A stretch of 35,890 nucleotides of DNA from a virus (Duplodnaviria > Heunggongvirae > Uroviricota > Caudoviricetes), in the IMG/VR virus record IMGVR_UViG_2909303794_000009. One strand, 5' to 3'. The notes beneath the pieces were generated by a model. The model ran no database searches. It saw only the letters and a list, made by a program, of their open reading frames with translations, and was not told the origin of the DNA. Of the stretch, positions 24,833 through 33,251 are shown one piece after another. Position numbers and translations under genes: made by a program. Numbering within the stretch: the stretch's first letter is position 1; each line of letters opens with the position of its first letter.

Positions 24833-25090
24833 CTACTTCGCTTTTGCTTCCGCTCGCTTACGCCGGCGCTCTTCTTTCCTCTCGGCTTTTGCCATGTCCA
24901 TGAATGCCTGCATGATCGAGTTCCGCATCATGTAGCTAACAAAGTGATGATTGACACAGCCGTTGAGGCGCAGCTGCTCGCCAAACTCATCCACCGAGGC
25001 CAATGCTTCCATCATGCCCTTCTCACCTTTCATGAACTCTGAGAAGTCACGCCCCGCTCTGGAGGCGCATTCAATGACACGATCACTCAT
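24833..25090 (-). CDS. Hypothetical protein (85 aa), translationally coupled to the upstream KilA-N frame
   Basis: ATG overlaps the TGA of the preceding frame (ATGA); Lys/Arg/Glu-rich C-terminus; no family recognised. Confidence 0.4.
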   Translation of the reverse strand: MSDRVIECASRAGRDFSEFMKGEKGMMEALASVDEFGEQLRLNGCVNHHFVSYMMRNSIMQAFMDMAKAERKEERRRKRAEAKAK

Positions 25091-25583
25091 CCCGGAAGCC
25101 CGGGGATCGTAATCTGCAGCTGGTTAGCCAGGGAGTTAATCTCAGCGACCAACACTGGCTTCGTATAGCGCCATGCCGCCAGCCCTTGTCCGCAGAAGCT
25201 CGCCATATCTTTTTTCTGATCAAACTCATGACACTTCATATTGAGCTGTGCACTTAAGCTGTTGCGATGCTGAAGTTCTCCGGTGAAGTAGTCATCCAGG
25301 ACTTTATAGGCTGCATATTTAAATCCGGGGTTTAGCCATGCTGCATAATCATAAGCAACAAACTTCCCGCCATATGTTCCACCGTGTACACCGCGCTCAG
25401 TAAAAACACAGATTCGTGGTTTTTCTCCAGCTCGGCTAAGAACTCTTTGGTCTGCTTGTTTCGCAGGTAGTGGTACGGAGATTCAGATTCACTTTTACCA
25501 CTGGCTTTCCACATATCAGTGAGGCAGATCATGCCATCTTCACCGATACGAATTGGTTGATTGAAGAGGGTTAATGATTTCAT
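25087..25583 (-). pseudogene. KilA-N domain protein gene split by a frameshift
   Basis: Frame A (25332..25583) MKSLTLFNQPIRIGEDGMICLTDMWKASGK... continues in a second frame as …ERGVHGGTYGGKFVAYDYAAWLNPGFKYAAYKVLDDYF… (KilA-N signature); frames switch at an A5/T5 run near 25412-25416. Confidence 0.55.
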
Positions 25584-26225: not shown

Positions 26226-26698
26226 GCCTCAATCTCTCTGACCGTTCCGCCTGCTTCTTTGAATTTTGAAATCAGACTGTCAGCCTTATGCTCGAACTGA
26301 CCATAACCAGCGCCCGGCAATGAAGCCCAGATATTGCTGCAACGGTCGATTGCCTGACGAATATCACCGCGGTCAATCATCGGTAAAGCGCCACGCTCTT
26401 TAATCTGTTGCAATGCCACAGCGTCCTGGCTTTTCGGAGAGAAGTCTTTCAGGCCAAGCTGCTTACGATAGGCATCCCACCAACGGGAAAGAAGCTGGTA
26501 ACGTCCGGCTGCTGTTGATTTGAGTTTTGGGTTTAGCGTGACAAGTTTGCGAGGGTGATCGGAGTAATCAGTAAACAGTTCACCACCGACAATAACATCA
26601 TAACCGTGGTTACGTGTCGGTTGTCGCCCGTTATCCGTTCCTTCTGACCATGCAACCATATCCAGGAAAGCTTTACGCTGGGAATTTAGTACCTGCAT
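26222..26698 (-). CDS. R: Endolysin R (lytic transglycosylase, 158 aa)
   Basis: …[73 protein letters not shown]… is near-identical to lambda R as recalled. Confidence 0.9.
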
Positions 26699-26701
26699 AA
26701 A

Positions 26702-27037
26702 TTACTCCTTCGAGCTACCAAACTTGTTACCGATTACTCTCATTGCAGCCCCACGAATAGCATCGACACCGATCAGCCCCACCCCACCACCAATGGCAAC
26801 AGAAAGCGATTTAGGCCATCCGACATACTCAAGCGCGGATGCAAAGGTCAACGTCAGAGCGCCACATAGCAAAATCTCGAGCGTTTTTCGCTTCCAGCCA
26901 CCACCACCGCCAAAATAGGCGATGCGCAAACCAGCCATAACAATCGACATAATCACTGCGCCCAGCGGCGTATCTCCACGCCACCAGCTCTGAAACAACT
27001 CCAGCCAGTCCGGCCAGGTATTTGGGTTATGAGGCAT
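26702..27037 (-). CDS. S: Holin (lambda S family but divergent), ~111 aa from the MPHNPNTW start
   Basis: Three hydrophobic segments (GAVIMSIVMAGLRIAYF, LEILLCGALTLTFASAL, VAIGGGVGLIGVDAI) and a charged C-terminus; loosely alignable to lambda S; GAGGTGA RBS upstream of the ATG at 27037. The ORF track extends to 27133, overlapping the methyltransferase 3' end. Confidence 0.7.
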   Translation of the reverse strand: MPHNPNTWPDWLELFQSWWRGDTPLGAVIMSIVMAGLRIAYFGGGGGWKRKTLEILLCGALTLTFASALEYVGWPKSLSVAIGGGVGLIGVDAIRGAAMRVIGNKFGSSKE

Positions 27038-27113
27038 TTCGTCATCTCTCACCTCGCGATATTTGCGGGTGCTGTGTTGGAAATAAAAAGGCCACGCAAC
27101 GTGGCCACCAGAA

Positions 27114-28166
27114 TTATTTCCCCACCAGTTCACTTACCTCTTTCACCGTCTGATTAAACCGCTCTGACTCAAGTTCAACACCTAACGCCCGACGCCCCAG
27201 CGCCATTGCCGCTTTTATTGTGGAACCGGATCCCATAAAGAAATCAGCAACCAGATCGCCTTGTCGACTACTGGCACTGATTATTTGCCGGAGCATATCC
27301 GCAGGCTTCTCACACGGATGTTTACCCGGGTAGAACTGAACGGGTTTATGCGTCCAGACATCGGTATAAGGCACGGAAACTGATACGGAGAAATAGCGCC
27401 GGAGAGTTTTAAACTCATCCAGCAATTCAGAATATTTGCGATTCAGTGAATCATAAGATGCCACCAGCTGGTGGTGTGGTTGTTCCAGTTGTTGTTCCTG
27501 AAATTTCTCTGCCGCTATACGGGAAAACAGTGCCTGCAACTTCCGGTAGTCAGCCTCATTCGGCAACTGCCACTGACTGGCACCAAACCAGTGGGAAACC
27601 ATATTTTTCTTACCAGTGGCTTCGGCAATCTGTTTTGCCGTTATACCCAGTTCGGCACGAGCATCCCTGAAATACGAAATCAGCGGTGCCATTATGTGCT
27701 GTTTGAGTTGACTTTCTTTTGCCGCATAGCCGTCACTTTTGCCGCGATATGGTCCCTGGTAATGTTCAGCAAACAGAACGCGTTCTGTTGCGGGAAAATA
27801 TGCGCGCAGACTTTCTTTATTACACCCGTTCCATCGTCCGGACGGCTTCGCCCAGATAATATGGTTAAGAACGTTGAAACGTTCACGCATCATGATCTCG
27901 ATATCAGATGCGAGGCGATGTCCACAGAACAGGTAAAGGCTTCCGGCAGGTTTCAGCACCCGCCAGAACTGAGCCAGACAGTGGTCCAGCCACTTCAGGT
28001 AATCTTCGTCCCCTTTCCACTGATTGTCCCAACCGTTGGGTTTCACCTTGAAGTACGGCGGATCGGTAACAATCAGGTCAATGGAATCATCAGGCAGGGA
28101 CTGAATAAAATGCAGGCAATCAGCGTTGATTAAATCAACACTGTTTATTTTCACAGTATTTTTCAT
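27114..28166 (-). CDS. Orphan DNA methyltransferase (N6-adenine/N4-cytosine type, beta-class motif order), 350 aa
   Basis: N-terminal catalytic motif IV DPPY (…IDLIVTDPPYF…) and C-terminal SAM-binding motif I (…DFFMGSGST…); no adjacent restriction endonuclease gene. Confidence 0.85.
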   Translation of the reverse strand: MKNTVKINSVDLINADCLHFIQSLPDDSIDLIVTDPPYFKVKPNGWDNQWKGDEDYLKWLDHCLAQFWRVLKPAGSLYLFCGHRLASDIEIMMRERFNVLNHIIWAKPSGRWNGCNKESLRAYFPATERVLFAEHYQGPYRGKSDGYAAKESQLKQHIMAPLISYFRDARAELGITAKQIAEATGKKNMVSHWFGASQWQLPNEADYRKLQALFSRIAAEKFQEQQLEQPHHQLVASYDSLNRKYSELLDEFKTLRRYFSVSVSVPYTDVWTHKPVQFYPGKHPCEKPADMLRQIISASSRQGDLVADFFMGSGSTIKAAMALGRRALGVELESERFNQTVKEVSELVGK

Positions 28167-28315
28167 GGATCAGTAAGCGTAACTCTGGTAGGCTCACTCT
28201 GCTTTTGCGCTAAAGCAGTGGGCCGTGGTTCGCTTGTGACCAGTAAGCATGAGCGAATGGCTGGCAGGTGCTACCAACACCCACCAGCCGCCCATTTTCA
28301 CAAATTAAAAGCCCT

Positions 28316-28510
28316 TCATTGCTGAAGGCGTCTGTAACAGCCGAACTGGTAATCTGCCAGCCCCGCCATAACCAGCTGGGTCAGTATTAACTGACAGCGT
28401 TCGCGTGAAAGGTATGTGTTTTGTGCAATCTCCCCGACTGTTGCCGGTTTGCCGTTTAATTCATTAAAAACAACTTTCGCCGTTTCTGTCATATCTAGCT
28501 GTTTTAGCAT
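28316..28510 (-). CDS. Small winged-helix DNA-binding protein, FaeA/PapI-like (64 aa)
   Basis: MLKQLDMTETAKVVFNELNGKPATVGEIAQNTYLSRERCQLILTQLVMAGLADYQ… has the small-regulator pattern (…G…T..EIA…..S….R..L..L…G.) seen in PapI/FaeA-type proteins; sits directly upstream of the methyltransferase. Confidence 0.45.
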   Translation of the reverse strand: MLKQLDMTETAKVVFNELNGKPATVGEIAQNTYLSRERCQLILTQLVMAGLADYQFGCYRRLQQ

Positions 28511-28627
28511 GTCTTTTTACCTTCATGGTTAACATGACATACCAATAACTCTTGTCTAAAAAGCCAGCAAGATAAAAAGTCAGTATTCACGACCACCAGC
28601 GTGTTTACCGTACTGCACCAGGTTTAC

Positions 28628-28657
28628 AGGTACAAAAAAACCCGCTCGACGGCGGGT
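28628..28657 (-). terminator. Putative intrinsic terminator (minus-strand orientation) between the porin and the late genes
   Basis: Minus strand ACCCGCC-GTCGA-GCGGGT followed by TTTTTTT. Confidence 0.5.
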
Positions 28658-28699
28658 TTAAGCTGTGTGGCGAAGTAACCACTCTTAACAGCATAACCA

Positions 28700-29084
28700 A
28701 TTTTTTACGTACGTAAACCTCTAAACAATATTTGTGAGAATGATATCGAGTGTTCAAAACACCACCACAATCACATAAGGAAAAATAAACAAATAATCAT
28801 TAAATAATTTCCGACGTTATTTTCAGTGAATTTAAATTAAAGAGATGAATTATAGAACACTTATAAATAACAACCTTTAATATAATTTAGCTACCAAATT
28901 TATTTTCTTTCAGAGAATAGTCATGCACAGCATGCATTAGAAAAAGTTCAGATAAAAATAGAGATCTAGATCACAATTTAAATAAGAATCTAAAACTTAC
29001 ATCTTGAATTAATCACATTGATTAGATGAATATTTGTCGCGCAGGGCATCATTTTTTAATAAATGTTCAAAAAAAGGTCTCACG
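28700..29084 (+). promoter_or_regulatory. AT-rich upstream regulatory region of the porin gene
   Basis: ~380 bp of very low GC with repeated TTTA/ACAT-type motifs (e.g. ACTTACATCTTGAATTAATCACATTGATTAGATG) resembling porin promoter/OmpR-box regions; no -10/-35 assigned. Confidence 0.3.
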
Positions 29085-30167
29085 ATGAAAAAATTAACAG
29101 TGGCAATTTCTGCTGTAGCTGCATCAGTACTGATGGCGATGTCTGCTCAGGCAGCTGAAATTTATAATAAAGACAGTAACAAGCTGGATCTGTACGGGAA
29201 AGTTAATGCTAAGCACTACTTCTCCTCTAATGATGCAGATGATGGTGATACTACTTATGCCCGTCTTGGCTTCAAAGGTGAAACCCAAATCAACGATCAA
29301 CTGACTGGTTTCGGTCAGTGGGAATATGAATTCAAAGGCAACCGCGCTGAATCTCAAGGTTCCTCCAAAGATAAAACCCGTCTTGCCTTCGCTGGCCTGA
29401 AATTCGGTGACTACGGCTCCATCGATTATGGCCGTAACTACGGTGTAGCATACGATATTGGTGCATGGACCGACGTTCTGCCAGAATTCGGTGGCGATAC
29501 CTGGACCCAAACAGATGTATTCATGACTGGTCGCACCACAGGTGTTGCAACTTATCGTAACAACGACTTCTTTGGTCTGGTTGATGGCCTGAACTTTGCA
29601 GCTCAGTATCAGGGCAAAAATGACCGAAATGAAGTAACTGAAGCTAATGGCGATGGTTTCGGTTTCTCAACTACTTATGAGTATGAAGGATTCGGCGTGG
29701 GTGCAACCTATGCTAAATCTGATCGCACTAATAATCAGGTTATCCTCGGTAACAACGGTCTGAATGCTTCTGGTAAAAATGCTGAAGTATGGGCAGCTGG
29801 TCTGAAATATGATGCGAACAACATCTATCTGGCCACCACCTATTCTGAAACCCAGAACATGACTGTTTTTGGTAATAACCATATTGCCAACAAAGCACAA
29901 AACTTCGAAGCTGTTGCACAATATCAGTTCGACTTCGGCCTGCGTCCATCCGTTGCTTACCTGCATTCTAAAGGAAAAGACTTGGGTGTTTGGGGTGATC
30001 AGGACCTGGTTGAATATGTTGATGTAGGTGCAACCTATTACTTCAACAAAAATATGTCCACTTTTGTTGACTACAAAATCAACCTGATTGATAAGAGCGA
30101 TTTCACGAAAGCATCTGGCGTTGCTACCGATGATATCGTTGCTGTAGGTATGGTTTACCAGTTCTAA
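29085..30167 (+). CDS. nmpC: Outer membrane general porin, NmpC/Lc/OmpC-family (360 aa with signal peptide)
   Basis: [40 protein letters not shown]… signal peptide and mature N-terminus, C-terminal …VAVGMVYQF; the ORF track begins 17 codons earlier at an alternative start codon. Confidence 0.85.
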
Positions 30168-30355: not shown

Positions 30356-30739
30356 TTAATTAGAGTTATTAACAACGATATCCATCTCTAACCGGATATC
30401 TAATGCCATTAACATCCCTTCAATTATGCCCTCAGCCTTTTGTAACCTTTTCCCGATATAACCATCAGAGCAGCAATGCTTACCTGCCAGTGACATGAAT
30501 GTCATACCGACTATATAATAATCTACTAATAAATCATGCAAATCGCTGTTGTTCTTTTTCAGACGGGCCATGCACCCGCAAATGATCATCGCGTCATCGT
30601 CACAACATTGCGGGCGAGATTTTACTTTTGAAGGAATTAATCCCTTAAAACCGGCGGCAATGGACGACCAGGTCACATCTTCATGATTATTAGCCGCCCA
30701 CGCTCCCCAACGCTCAAGAACCATCTGAATATCACGCAT
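30356..30739 (-). CDS. Q: Late-gene antiterminator Q, phage 82/QuuD-type (127 aa from [11 protein letters not shown] start)
   Basis: [33 protein letters not shown]… with Cys cluster (…[12 protein letters not shown]…); GGAG RBS 8 nt upstream; unlike lambda Q; the ORF track begins 5 codons earlier. Confidence 0.75.
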
Positions 30740-30821
30740 CAACTTACTCCACAAAAATCAGACCAAAACGCCAATTACAAGCAAAAATCAACAAAACAGT
30801 ATTAGTTGATTGTTATCTCTG

Positions 30822-31872: not shown

Positions 31873-32037
31873 TGTCATTTCCTCGCACGATATCTTAGCC
31901 ACCGGATATCCCACAGGTGAGCTGTGTAATTGAAGGTTTTTACGTCAGATTCTTTTGGGATTGGCTTGCGTTTATTTCTGGAGTGAACCGCCCCGGGAAT
32001 CCTGGAGACTAAACTCCCTGAGAAAGAGGTAAACAGG

Positions 32038-32364
32038 ATGACTAAAAATACACGTTTTTCCCCCGAGGTCCGTCAACGGGCAGTTCGTATGGTTCTGGAA
32101 AGTCAGGGCGAATATGACTCTCAATGGGCGGCAATTTGTTCCATTGCCCCAAAGATTGGCTGTACACCAGAGACTCTGCGTGTGTGGGTTCGTCAGCATG
32201 AGCGGGATACCGGGAGTGGTGATGGTGGACTCACCACCGCTGAACGTCAGCGTCTGAAAGAGCTGGAACGTGAAAATCGTGAACTGCGCCGCAGTAACGA
32301 TATCCTTCGCCAGGCTTCCGCTTATTTTGCGAAGGCGGAGTTCGACCGCCTCTGGAAAAAATAA
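32038..32364 (+). CDS. IS3-family transposase OrfA (HTH, 108 aa)
   Basis: [59 protein letters not shown]… recognised as IS629-group OrfA; ends in an A-rich run (A AAA AAT AA) overlapping the orfB start. Confidence 0.85.
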
Positions 32365-33251
32365 TGCCGCTGCTGGATAAGCTGCGTGAGCAGTACGGGG
32401 TCGGACCGGTATGCAGTGAACTGCATATTGCCCCGTCAACGTATTACCACTGTCAGCAACAGCGACATCATCCTGATAAACGCAGTGCCCGTGCTCAGCG
32501 CGATGACTGGCTGAAGAGAGAGATACAGCGCGTATACGATGAAAATCATCAGGTGTACGGTGTGCGTAAAGTCTGGCGCCAGTTGTTACGCGAAGGTATC
32601 AGGGTGGCCAGATGTACAGTGGCGCGCCTCATGGCGGTTATGGGACTTGCCGGTGTTCTCCGGGGTAAAAAGGTCCGTACTACCGTCAGCCGGAAAGCCG
32701 TTTCCGCAGGCGACCGCGTAAACCGTCAGTTCGTGGCAGAACGTCCTGACCAGCTGTGGGTGGCTGATTTTACTTACGTCAGCACATGGCAGGGCTTCGT
32801 CTATGTGGCGTTCATCATTGATGTGTTTGCCGGATGTATCGTGGGGTGGCGAGTCTCATCGTCTATGGAAACGACATTCGTGCTGGATGCACTGGAGCAG
32901 GCGTTGTGGGCCCGTCGGCCGTCCGGCACAGTCCATCACAGTGATAAAGGTTCTCAGTATGTATCACTGGCCTATACGGAGCGACTAAAAGAAGCAAAAC
33001 TGCTGGCATCAACAGGGAGTACAGGTGACTCGTATGACAACGCGATGGCGGAGAGCATCAATGGTCTTTACAAAGCGGAGGTAATACACCGTAAGAGCTG
33101 GAAAAACCGTGCAGAAGTGGAACTGGCCACACTCACGTGGGTGGACTGGTATAACAATCGACGATTGCTGGGAAGGCTGGGTCATATCCCTCCGGCAGAA
33201 GCAGAAAAAGCTTATTATGCTTCCATCAGAAACGATGATCTGGCAGCCTGA
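32364..33251 (+). CDS. IS3-family transposase OrfB (DDE integrase core, 295 aa)
   Basis: …LWVADFTYVSTWQGFVYVAFIIDVFAGCIVGW…HSDKGSQYVS…DNAMAESINGLYKAEVI… DDE-type catalytic core. Confidence 0.85.
   Translation: MPLLDKLREQYGVGPVCSELHIAPSTYYHCQQQRHHPDKRSARAQRDDWLKREIQRVYDENHQVYGVRKVWRQLLREGIRVARCTVARLMAVMGLAGVLRGKKVRTTVSRKAVSAGDRVNRQFVAERPDQLWVADFTYVSTWQGFVYVAFIIDVFAGCIVGWRVSSSMETTFVLDALEQALWARRPSGTVHHSDKGSQYVSLAYTERLKEAKLLASTGSTGDSYDNAMAESINGLYKAEVIHRKSWKNRAEVELATLTWVDWYNNRRLLGRLGHIPPAEAEKAYYASIRNDDLAA

Follow-up and report, generated by a model that had tools for sequence, protein, structure and literature searches.

A conserved structured leader RNA lies between a small winged-helix gene and an M.EcoGII-family methyltransferase gene in a late cassette of temperate phages

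Introduction

M.EcoGII is a textbook non-specific methyltransferase and a widely used reagent for chromatin and RNA footprinting. In its native setting it is non-specific, is not expressed in the lysogen and is deleterious once expressed (PMC5778455), and a review puts it together with Mom as 'silent in lysogens and toxic' (PMC12707154). We did not find the mechanism of its control described in the published accounts that state this silence and toxicity. How such an enzyme is held off is the question raised by a locus in the window analysed here, by which we mean the whole 35,890-nucleotide stretch of IMG/VR virus record IMGVR_UViG_2909303794_000009 (Caudoviricetes), where a 64-aa open reading frame (ORF) precedes an orphan methyltransferase gene. 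An earlier note on this DNA had seen in the small ORF the sequence pattern of the PapI/FaeA regulators, had considered that the spacer between the two genes might be operator DNA, and had not been able to assign the methyltransferase to a described system. Our main new result is that this spacer is a covariation-supported RNA, better conserved than either of the genes that it separates.

The cassette and its slot in the late operon

The host element of the cassette is a defective lambdoid prophage, and the cassette occupies the slot between Q and the lysis genes, where the earlier note had placed it and where phiP27 also carries stx2e. The 64-aa ORF (28316-28510) and the methyltransferase gene (27114-28166) are indeed co-oriented, both on the minus strand, and 149 nt apart. 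Upstream of the pair are found a terminator, a porin gene and Q, and downstream of it a terminator and the holin gene S. The Q antiterminator gene (30356..30754, minus strand), annotated quuD in RefSeq, matches PF06530 with E=1.2e-53. According to a terminator scan, the upstream intrinsic terminator lies at 28638..28659 on the minus strand (8-bp stem, then TTTTGT); a terminator is annotated at the same relative position in SfV, between Q and orf47, and the region bears a weak resemblance to isrK, a short late transcript of Gifsy-1. This would be the position of the tR' terminator that is read through by Q and, by analogy with the late operons of lambdoid phages, expression of the cassette is expected to depend on read-through supplied by Q. 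The same scan gives the terminator that closes the cassette just upstream of holin S, at 27090..27106 on the minus strand (7-bp stem with 6 GC pairs, then TTTTTATTT), and the SfV and Ayreon records annotate a terminator at this position before the holin. A promoter inside the spacer was also considered and rejected, as a sigma-70 scan of the spacer found none on the minus strand. In the loci examined, the position of the cassette is constant: Q or a late promoter precedes it, and the lysis genes follow or enclose it.

SfV (orf47/orf48), phiP27 (L23/L24), mEp460 (gp52/gp53), the cdtI phage and Stx2 phages all carry this cassette at the same place, with no difference of substance. The small protein of the window is 94% identical to that of SfV and about 51% to those of mEp460 and cdtI, while the methyltransferase is 98% identical in SfV and mEp460 and 81% in phiP27; records of this type label the small gene as hypothetical or 'TrmB family'. 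A survey of co-occurrence, which the earlier note had called for, shows that the pair is kept across prophages far beyond chance: the methyltransferase lies at a fixed distance in 34 of the 36 species genomes that have the small ORF, and the small ORF is present at 77 of 80 IMG/VR methyltransferase loci. The cassette is found in 2454 of 5426 complete E. coli genomes (45%), often in several copies, and in some Shiga-toxin phages it is a neighbour of stx. In the window, no endonuclease gene adjoins the methyltransferase, and a three-part layout without endonuclease is common to the annotated phage records and the loci examined.

The pairing extends to N15-like phages, in which a remote homologue of the small ORF accompanies an enzyme of the M.EcoGII family. 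In the linear-plasmid prophages N15 (gp51/gp52) and PY54 (ORF59/gene 60), the winged-helix homologue is recovered by hhalign (85%) and by hmmsearch (1e-19 to 1e-22, N15 gp51 and PY54 ORF59 being among the training sequences of the profile), the leader described below is recognised by its covariance model (36-61 bits), and the enzyme is 55-60% identical. These phages differ, however, in that the late promoter and a terminator follow their small gene, which is thus in a separate transcription unit, and co-transcription is not universal.

The methyltransferase belongs to the M.EcoGII family

The gene at 27114..28166 (minus strand; phrog_67) encodes a 350-aa beta-class N6-adenine DNA methyltransferase. 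The beta-class assignment made at the outset holds: PF01555 covers residues 29-341 (E=9.7e-42), with DPPY at 35-38 and FMGSGST at 310-316, and the motif order is that of the M.EcoGII family, with motif IV (DPPY) N-terminal, the TRD central and motif I (FxGxG) C-terminal. Relatives of solved structure match in the catalytic core only. When compared to M.EcoGII, whose reference sequence we took from a machine-read PDF (PMC11551740, Table S1), 282 of 349 residues are identical (81%) with 90% positives, the TRD region included. The likeness to M.EcoGII and M.EcoGI of the E. coli O104:H4 prophages (Murray et al. 2018, PMC5778455) covers full-length identity, motif order, length (349-350 aa), carriage by a prophage and the lack of a cognate endonuclease. 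Contrary to what the earlier note supposed, the enzyme therefore belongs to a family that is already described. The non-specific activity is known for M.EcoGII, and it is by homology that the window allele would likewise methylate adenine with little or no sequence specificity. In recombinant form, M.EcoGII has full activity by itself (PMC5778455), and beta-class methyltransferases are thought to work as dimers (PMC7544214). We found neither an upstream winged-helix gene nor a structured leader mentioned in PMC5778455. The earlier note had hesitated between an epigenetic regulatory and an anti-restriction module, rather than a restriction-modification system. Anti-restriction is the accepted reading for this enzyme family (PMC5778455, PMC12707154), and that part stands; the epigenetic part, with its PapI/Lrp switch, is not supported.

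A small winged-helix protein outside the FaeA/PapI family

The small gene (28316..28510, minus strand; phrog_331) is homologous to SfV orf47, phiP27 L23 and mEp460 gp52, and remotely related to N15 gp51. It has an AAGG Shine-Dalgarno sequence 9 nt upstream of its ATG. Divergence among its homologues by codon position (0.34/0.26/0.55) is of the coding type, like that of the methyltransferase (0.27/0.20/0.56), while the spacer shows no such pattern (0.23/0.23/0.23); the small ORF is thus more than a chance reading frame, and it is a real, selected gene.

The AlphaFold2 model of the protein is a minimal winged helix (mean pLDDT 90), a small fold of the kind seen in the FaeA/PapI family. The likeness ends there: the profile check gave no match to the Pfam FaeA-like family (PF04703) at E<=1 for the window protein and all 18 family members scanned, no PapI chain appeared at E<=10 in sequence and profile searches of the PDB, and PapI is not among the closest structural matches listed. 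The only Pfam matches are to generic winged-helix families (TrmB, MarR_2 and DprA_WH), all below threshold; for TrmB (PF01978) the score is 17.4 bits against a cut-off of 25.6, with a best E-value of 8.6e-4 among the 18 members. No NCBIfam model matches, and many family members are nonetheless named 'TrmB family transcriptional regulator' by NCBI. The closest structural matches are mostly DNA-binding domains of the MarR, ArsR, IclR and TrmB-like types. In Foldseek, the protein matches best to the winged-helix N-terminal domains of SAM-dependent O-methyltransferases, which we take to be dimerisation domains, with weak E-values (none <=0.001), and the profile of the small protein also matches DsyB. 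T44 and Q45 of helix 3 are invariant. With an unusually hydrophobic recognition helix (CQLILTQLVMAGL) and a net charge of about +1, the protein gives no argument for strong nucleic-acid binding. It consists of one 64-aa domain in which no dimerisation element is obvious, and it has no CxxC pairs, which sets it apart from the Com zinc ribbon (PF10122). A deep homology search matched 63 cluster representatives out of 1.8 billion sequences, nearly all of them short proteins and those of named source coming from Enterobacterales, and found no link to a larger family.

The spacer is a conserved structured RNA

The 149-nt spacer (28167-28315, minus strand) is almost entirely occupied by a 144-nt structured leader RNA of the methyltransferase (28161..28304, minus strand), which our covariance model R1 recognises with 156 bits and E=1.5e-32, on the sense strand only. 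It is made of a long hairpin, P1 (28249-28295), a second hairpin, P3 (28191-28224), and a long-range helix, P2, which pairs 28231-28241 with 28168-28179, all on the minus strand; the 3' strand of P2 is formed by the 12 nt that immediately precede the methyltransferase AUG (28164-28166, minus strand), at the 3' end of the leader. Before it, a terminator scan finds a terminator-like hairpin, P0, that covers the stop codon of the small ORF and is followed by a U-rich tract (28313..28328, minus strand). The P0 stem shows compensatory changes among Enterobacteriaceae, with a U8 tract in some relatives, and N15, PY54 and VHML have a strong terminator at this position relative to the leader.

Conservation and covariation both identify the spacer as RNA, and not as the operator DNA first envisaged. 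Mean pairwise identity reaches 77% in the leader, as against 62% and 66% in the small ORF and the methyltransferase, respectively. In 48 leader sequences, 90.6% of the cells are paired, versus 24-45% in slid controls, and compensatory changes occur at 27 of 35 pairs, values that were reached by 0 of 500 shuffles; these pair counts are inflated because the covariance-model alignment is fitted to the structure, a MAFFT-only alignment giving 90.7% paired and 9 compensatory pairs. RNAalifold independently recovers P1, P2 and P3, the z-score of the fold is -3.2, and the G-U pairs of the leader exist on the sense strand only. In P2, AAG/CUU is replaced by GGA/UCC or GGG/CCC. High conservation between distant hosts is also seen at the junctions (RDGGGCG, AAGGCCC and GAGCCUANCA).

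The position of P2 is what would connect this structure to translation. It covers nucleotides -2 to -13 before the AUG, and positions -12 to -9 have an in silico unpaired probability of at most 0.08. Minimum-free-energy folds show P1, P2 and P3 in the window and in the Providencia members, and P2 and P3 in a Dam-type member. For the window sequence, the probability of P2 is about 0.5 and that of a competing hairpin about 0.45; either of them occludes the same nucleotides. The Enterobacteriaceae version of the leader has no Shine-Dalgarno sequence before the methyltransferase AUG. In these predicted folds, the start of the modification gene is thus occluded by mRNA structure, as in Com/Mom-type systems.

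Several other features of the spacer were considered and set aside. A tRNA or an already known RNA was rejected, with no tRNA found in the spacer by ARAGORN and no Rfam match either at gathering thresholds in the whole window or at E<=10 inside the spacer. A spacer peptide in the ATG-GGC-GGC... frame (MGGWWVLVAP...; MGDCKGVG... in the Providencia version) was rejected too: compensatory stem changes and indels alter or truncate it, and codon periodicity is lacking. An outer UGUGA:UCACA helix that would close P1 is unsupportable because its strands are both invariant in Enterobacterales and missing in N15. A switch between 5' RWGGGC and GCCCWY is compatible with about 119 of 155 sequences, but this comes down to one change separating two clades, and the pairing fails in 25 Com-type members. 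Finally, a loose search for the GTGGGCG pattern in DNA returned 120 matches, 89 of them without a methyltransferase downstream; when 83 of the 89 were tested with the covariance model, none matched at the pattern site (one locus, L157, matched elsewhere), so these are chance occurrences.

Related leaders before com and Dam-like genes

In at least 100 other viral contigs, a related leader stands before a Com zinc-ribbon gene or a Dam-like methylase gene, and a genuine Com (PF10122, E=4e-19) is encoded directly downstream of such leaders in other phages. In the com and Dam-like leaders, the equivalent of P2 contains an AAGG or GAGG Shine-Dalgarno sequence (CUGCAAGCC/GGCUUUGCAG versus CUGUGAGCC/GGCUCACA). 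The related L157 leader has nothing credible in Rfam, its only match being one of 12 bits (E=2.1) on the opposite strand to a mammalian lncRNA model. Of 120 leader loci of the Com or Dam type, 119 have no small-protein gene, and VHML-type loci have the leader without the winged-helix gene; hence the protein cannot be a strict requirement of the leader. Fremin, Bhatt and Kyrpides (2023, PMC10690425) reported candidate structured RNAs ahead of N6-adenine methyltransferase genes in phages, and one of them may be this leader; the text of PMC10690425 gives no structure, no mechanism and no link to M.EcoGII, Com or a winged-helix gene.

The com-mom module of Mu offers a parallel. Both concern a very late, toxic and promiscuous DNA modification, with a gene for a protein of about 60 aa upstream and an mRNA structure that hides the translation start, and leaders of this same RNA family stand directly upstream of genuine com genes in other phages. 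The differences are that the small protein of the window is a winged helix and not a Com zinc ribbon, that the enzyme is a methyltransferase and not Mom, and that the order is small gene, RNA, enzyme, whereas Com-type loci have RNA, com, next gene. It is by analogy with Mu that the small protein might be an activator.

A two-level model and its alternatives

The reading that we favour, with a probability of roughly 60%, is that of a Q-dependent late anti-restriction cassette under post-transcriptional control in the style of Mu com/mom. It draws on the homology, the conserved pairing, the RNA structure and the start occlusion computed here, and on the non-specific activity, silence in lysogens and toxicity reported for M.EcoGII. 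The cassette would be a late-operon module of temperate phages, with terminators on both sides and three conserved parts, whose adenine methylation of the M.EcoGII type would make the DNA of the progeny phage resistant to many restriction enzymes. As the enzyme is harmful to the cell, it would be held off at two levels. We infer that the methyltransferase is transcribed only when Q-modified RNA polymerase passes the upstream terminators. The 144-nt leader would then fold so that P2 pairs the 12 nt directly before the AUG and, with no Shine-Dalgarno sequence, translation would be intrinsically low or would need an opening event; the leader probably keeps the toxic enzyme silent until shortly before lysis. 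The 64-aa protein, made from the same late transcript, would be a partner specific to this methyltransferase family, and its most likely roles are those of a trans-acting factor controlling expression of the methyltransferase, as a functional analogue of Mu Com, or of a modulator of the enzyme. We counted against this reading the leaders that occur without the winged-helix gene, the N15-like gene order, the hydrophobic recognition helix and the competing hairpin.

The alternatives differ in what they make of the small protein and of the spacer. A PapI/FaeA-type regulator acting with Lrp at methylation-sensitive sites would form, with the methyltransferase, a heritable epigenetic switch; the protein is small and a winged helix, as PapI is, and the methyltransferase ATG has an invariant GATC before it, at -6 to -3. 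This idea can be dropped as highly improbable. The protein resembles PapI/FaeA in neither sequence nor profile, structural searches do not favour PapI as a neighbour, and the genes stand in a late operon of a phage (Q, porin, terminator, ORF, methyltransferase, holin) and not in a fimbrial one; we found nothing connecting the cassette to Lrp and no features of a GATC switch. The GATC, rejected as a Dam or epigenetic site, is accounted for by helix P2, within which the partner strand changes compatibly from GGUCA to GAUCA (G-U to A-U). Moreover, M.EcoGII is silent in lysogens (PMC5778455), and methylation of any adenine, as expected by homology, is ill-suited to a site-specific switch. Still less credible is a restriction-modification system with a controller (C) protein and a missed endonuclease: a small HTH-type gene does precede the methyltransferase, but the protein is not an Xre-type C protein, and gene content already refutes the idea, with no endonuclease-like ORF between Q and holin and none in the layout of the loci examined. 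An ordinary DNA-binding transcription factor, repressing or activating a promoter of the cassette or elsewhere in the phage independently of the leader, is an alternative to be taken seriously, even if we think it unlikely. Its structural neighbours, its 'TrmB family' names, the invariant T44 and Q45 and the N15-like gene just upstream of the late promoter all fit; the Pfam matches under their curated cut-offs, the single domain without a dimerisation element and the lack of a repeated or palindromic operator in an unsystematic look argue against it, and spacer conservation is explained by RNA pairs, sense-strand G-U pairs included.

Somewhat less probable to us is that the protein acts as an accessory subunit or modulator of the methyltransferase, for instance by helping it to dimerise, by restraining it or by targeting it to phage DNA. 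Its distribution does track the M.EcoGII-type enzyme and not the leader, as its near-absence from Com- and Dam-type loci illustrates, and the O-methyltransferase and DsyB matches, the presumed dimeric state of beta-class enzymes and the hydrophobic surface of helix 3 point the same way; against this, M.EcoGII needs no partner for full activity in recombinant form, the Foldseek E-values are weak and VHML-type homologues do without such a partner. That the leader senses a ligand or factor, like a riboswitch, or is processed into a trans-acting small RNA, seems to us improbable. A closing helix that sequesters the Shine-Dalgarno sequence is typical of riboswitch expression platforms, and the leader has conserved junctions and possible alternative pairings (P2 versus an AGUGAGC:GCUUACU hairpin, and the 5' RWGGGC versus GCCCWY pairing). 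However, these pairings rest on near-invariant bases or on effectively one change between two clades, the downstream genes (Com, Dam-like, M.EcoGII-like) share no function that would suggest a ligand, and nothing points to processing of the leader.

Significance

The favoured reading, a late cassette under com/mom-style control, ties M.EcoGII-type enzymes mechanistically to the classic Mu paradigm, and an RNA structure hiding the start, together with a dedicated small protein, makes a directly testable model of their control. The presence of the same RNA family before com and Dam-like genes suggests a regulatory device shared by phage anti-restriction enzymes. More tentatively, the leader may represent a widespread and undescribed class of cis-regulatory RNA, found in temperate phages of Gammaproteobacteria and probably of other Proteobacteria, that would gate promiscuous DNA-modification genes (M.EcoGII-type, Dam-like and com/mom-type operons) through a closing helix hiding the ribosome-binding site, the 64-aa protein being a new RNA-binding, Com-like activator or an enzyme partner dedicated to the M.EcoGII branch. 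If true, this would account for how a toxic, non-specific methylase can stay silent in nearly half of E. coli genomes and be released only at the end of the lytic cycle.

The methyltransferase and its cassette

The methyltransferase belongs to a three-part cassette that lies on the minus strand of a lambdoid E. coli prophage and consists of a 64-aa small ORF (28510-28316), a 149-nt spacer (28315-28167) and the 350-aa enzyme itself (28166-27114), just as the earlier note had placed them, with coordinates and distances that are all correct. An intrinsic terminator (28659-28638, minus) stands 5' of the small ORF, and a second, strong one (27106-27090, minus) stands 3' of the methyltransferase, followed by the holin, endolysin and spanin genes on the same strand. 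The gene order from the late antiterminator Q/quuD (30356-30754, minus) to these lysis genes contains no endonuclease gene. Window 26600-29100 is 100% identical to E. coli strain 14EC007 over the 2.5-kb stretch compared, and in that strain the prophage adjoins ybhC.

The enzyme has a PF01555 match (E=9.7e-42), its DPPY and FxGxG motifs lying close to the N- and the C-terminus respectively, and it shares 282 of 349 residues (81%) with M.EcoGII (reference sequence from Table S1 of PMC11551740). Judged by its sequence, it is of a known type and not novel. M.EcoGII is a prophage-borne enzyme that modifies adenines whatever the surrounding sequence; the lysogen does not express it, and its expression slows growth. 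Its authors proposed that it serves to overcome host restriction (PMC5778455). With this degree of identity and this literature, the fallback of the earlier note, an anti-restriction module rather than a restriction-modification system, is therefore the accepted reading.

The pairing of the two genes is a real and conserved module, and it is ordinary in frequency. The same layout is found in SfV (orf47/48), phiP27 (L23/L24, with the tRNAs and stx2e after them), mEp460 and Morganella phage IME1369_02, and in all four the cassette follows Q. The survey of prophages that the earlier note had called for bears the pairing out: among one-genome-per-species contigs, the methyltransferase starts 320-355 nt past the small ORF start in 34 of the 36 loci with a small ORF (the two exceptions being a methyltransferase deletion and a spurious match), and the small ORF is upstream in 77/80 IMG/VR methyltransferase loci. 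The genera include Kluyvera, Citrobacter, Salmonella, Klebsiella, Enterobacter, Buttiauxella, Mixta, Erwinia, Providencia, Proteus and Plesiomonas, and 2454 of 5426 complete E. coli genomes match at least 80% of the cassette, with as many as 8 places in one genome. In the N15-like and PY54-like linear-plasmid prophages the small protein has a remote homologue, gp51/ORF59, encoded upstream of the late promoter and terminator (hhalign 85%; hmmsearch 1e-19 to 1e-22, with N15 gp51 and PY54 ORF59 among the training sequences of the profile). The small ORF is absent in VHML-type and phiO18P-type relatives of the methyltransferase.

Several features of the surrounding prophage were also observed. As in DLP12 and PA-2, an ompC/nmpC-like porin gene (29085-30167, plus, opposite to the cassette; Porin_1, E=1e-152) separates Q from the late terminator and puts about 1.6 kb between Q and its presumed target promoter. 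The region 28635-28760 (minus), 5' of the first terminator, could be a short pR'-tR' transcript of the 6S/StxS/IsrK kind, the sole pointers to it being a weak match to isrK (E=1.1) and, by eye, a pair of promoter-like elements, TTGAAC...CAAATA. A ninE and an excisionase gene, both truncated, flank an IS3-family element (31900-33200) that carries a programmed frameshift and has an ALIL pseudoknot in its region (32319-32435, plus). Since the prophage seems to lack its immunity and replication region, it is probably defective, and induction of the cassette may never take place in this strain. The KilA-N domain gene 3' of the lysis genes (25087-25583, minus) is frameshifted and is a pseudogene in RefSeq. 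An IS009 RNA (44-242, minus; Rfam match, 225 bits) is far from the cassette.

A structured leader RNA

The chief new result is that the spacer is a structured RNA. Its mean pairwise identity (77%) exceeds that of the methyltransferase (66%) and of the small ORF (62%); between mEp460 and the window, the spacer is 95% identical and the small protein just about 51%. Three helices are found on the minus strand: P1, a long hairpin (28295-28249; AUGGGC:GCUCAU and GGCUGGUGGGUG:CACCUGCCAGCC); P3, a second hairpin (28224-28191; GGC-C-CAC...GCUUU : AAAGC...GUG-A-GCC); and P2, a long-range helix (28241-28231 with 28179-28168; GGUCACAAGCG:CGCUUACUGAUC) that ends 2 nt before the methyltransferase AUG. RNAalifold predicted all three independently. 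When 32 sequences are aligned with MAFFT alone, the paired cells make up 90.7%, against 22-47% with slid partners, and 9 pairs are changed on both sides, values reached in 0 of 500 shuffles. P2 covaries clearly (AAG/CUU to GGA/UCC or GGG/CCC; GGUCA/UGAUC to GAUCA/UGAUC). The functional strand is the sense one, since many pairs are G-U on that strand only.

The covariance model built from this alignment finds one copy in the window, on the sense strand (156 bits), and further copies in every Enterobacterales locus, PY54 (61 bits), VHML (49 bits) and N15 (36 bits). A 48-sequence alignment, which was fitted to the model and so favours the structure, has compensatory changes in 27 of 35 pairs (120 cells versus 27 in shuffles). 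The spacer matched no family in Rfam 15 and holds no tRNA. The near-invariant 5' RWGGGC (28290-28295, minus) could also pair with GCCCWY in P3 (28216-28221, minus); among 155 leader-like sequences, those of the Enterobacterial type have AUGGGC/GCCCAC here and those of the Com type GAGGGC/GCCCUC. Such an interaction would be a rival to P1 and P3 and may be a conformational switch or chance complementarity.

The structure comes close to the translation start. No Shine-Dalgarno precedes the methyltransferase AUG in the Enterobacteriaceae version, and in Morganellaceae the AAGG is found at the base of P2. The thermodynamic ensemble computed for the window sequence leaves nucleotides -12 to -9 with an unpaired probability of at most 0.08, and P2 (probability about 0.5) and a competing hairpin (about 0.45) hide the same nucleotides.

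A wider family of leaders

A divergent match of the covariance model, locus L157 (35 bits, E about 4e-5 by rough calibration), prompted a search of IMG/VR for the pattern AGGGCG...AAGGCCC...GAGCCTA, which at least 120 contigs matched. The leader-like RNA of L157 (2685-2835 of that locus, minus) has the conserved blocks and helix order of the window leader, and its next gene is the zinc ribbon Com (PF10122, E=4e-19). Among the matches listed (L246-L365), a Com-type zinc ribbon is the next gene in 94 of the 113 loci with a detectable ORF, by a CxxC-pair test; in others it is a Dam-like (alpha-class) methyltransferase, and in L355 an M.EcoGII-type enzyme, accompanied by the winged-helix gene. The genes after com differ, with B_lectin-like proteins and unknown small proteins among their products.

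The Com and Dam-like leaders agree with the window leader in conserved blocks and helix order, and their P2-equivalent holds an AAGG or GAGG Shine-Dalgarno and covaries by inspection (CUGCAAGCC/GGCUUUGCAG versus CUGUGAGCC/GGCUCACA, with an MFE fold of the Dam-type locus L272). This subset aligned poorly with MAFFT/RNAalifold and the structure was recovered only in part; the homology of the groups therefore rests on the L157 match, the shared blocks and the shared architecture, from which we take the leader to belong to this wider family. Immediately 5' of the leader, the lambdoid type, N15, PY54, VHML and L157 all have a terminator-like hairpin followed by a U-tract, which in the lambdoid type overlaps the stop codon of the small ORF; a crude perfect-stem test finds the hairpin in 70/155 pattern-matched sequences.

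The small winged-helix protein

The small ORF is a real gene: an AAGG Shine-Dalgarno stands 9 nt before its ATG, the homologues stay within 63-67 aa, and its divergence by codon position (0.34/0.26/0.55) follows the pattern of the methyltransferase (0.27/0.20/0.56), the spacer being free of periodicity. AlphaFold2, run on an alignment of 17 sequences, models the protein as a minimal winged helix (mean pLDDT 90; H1 9-17, H2 25-32, H3 36-48, beta-hairpin wing). The family, phrog_331 (function unknown) in PHROGs and without a model in NCBIfam, is narrow: 63 cluster representatives of 1.8 billion matched, nearly all short proteins, and the sources named are Enterobacterales. In one 5774-aa protein of the representative library, 19 separate segments match (112 bits, 25% identity); this may be a protein of repeated winged-helix units.

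Variation around the gene was seen as well. A mosaic joint falls at its 3' end (28300-28330; E. coli matches H123-H125), many E. coli matches begin at query position 209, just past it, and the protein comes in two allelic types, one like that of SfV and one like that of mEp460, which are about 50% identical and precede a nearly identical leader and methyltransferase. Two copies are decayed: in Erwinia tracheiphila (L024) the small ORF has no stop codon and the methyltransferase is frameshifted, and in Enterobacteriaceae MGYG-HGUT-00110 (L022) the methyltransferase is deleted, and what is left is the leader (98 bits) and a small ORF truncated at its 5' end.

The role of this protein is the weakest step of the mechanism that we propose. 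The earlier note had seen in it a PapI/FaeA-type regulator, and this epigenetic-switch interpretation is not supported: the protein and 18 diverse family members gave no match to Pfam FaeA-like at E<=1, only sub-threshold generic wHTH matches (DprA_WH, TrmB, MarR_2, HTH_20, Rrf2), and PapI was absent from the results of PDB sequence and profile searches and from the best Foldseek matches. That the protein opens the leader RNA has, in our estimate, about one chance in four; the protein tracks the M.EcoGII-type enzyme in its distribution and the leader also occurs without it, so a strict opening of the RNA by the protein is just one option. A DNA-binding regulator is an equally tentative reading, with MarR/IclR regulators in the Foldseek results. 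A protein partner of the methyltransferase is slightly less likely again; the top Foldseek matches, to the winged-helix domains at the N-terminus of SAM-dependent O-methyltransferases (PigF, RedM, DsyB, SibL, Rv2258c), are a possible hint of such a role. The MarR/IclR regulators and the RNA-binding SelB domain come after these, and all the best Foldseek matches are weak (E>0.001).

How the cassette may work

We propose that transcription of the cassette would depend strictly on read-through of the terminators by Q-modified polymerase, that the leader would keep methyltransferase translation low or conditional, and that progeny DNA would then be heavily adenine-methylated and escape restriction. 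The enzyme homology, the conserved three-part cassette, the RNA structure and the in-silico occlusion of the start region, on which this scheme is based, are shown here; the non-specific activity, silence in the lysogen and toxicity come from the literature. The cassette logic is like that of Mu com-mom, and the cassette is not a member of that system because its small protein is a winged helix rather than a zinc ribbon of the Com type. The literature consulted on the cassette gave no description of the leader, which has no Rfam family; it may be one of the four uncharacterised candidates upstream of phage adenine methyltransferases (PMC10690425). The cassette as a whole would be a late, post-transcriptionally restrained form of promiscuous DNA modification, already known as a kind.
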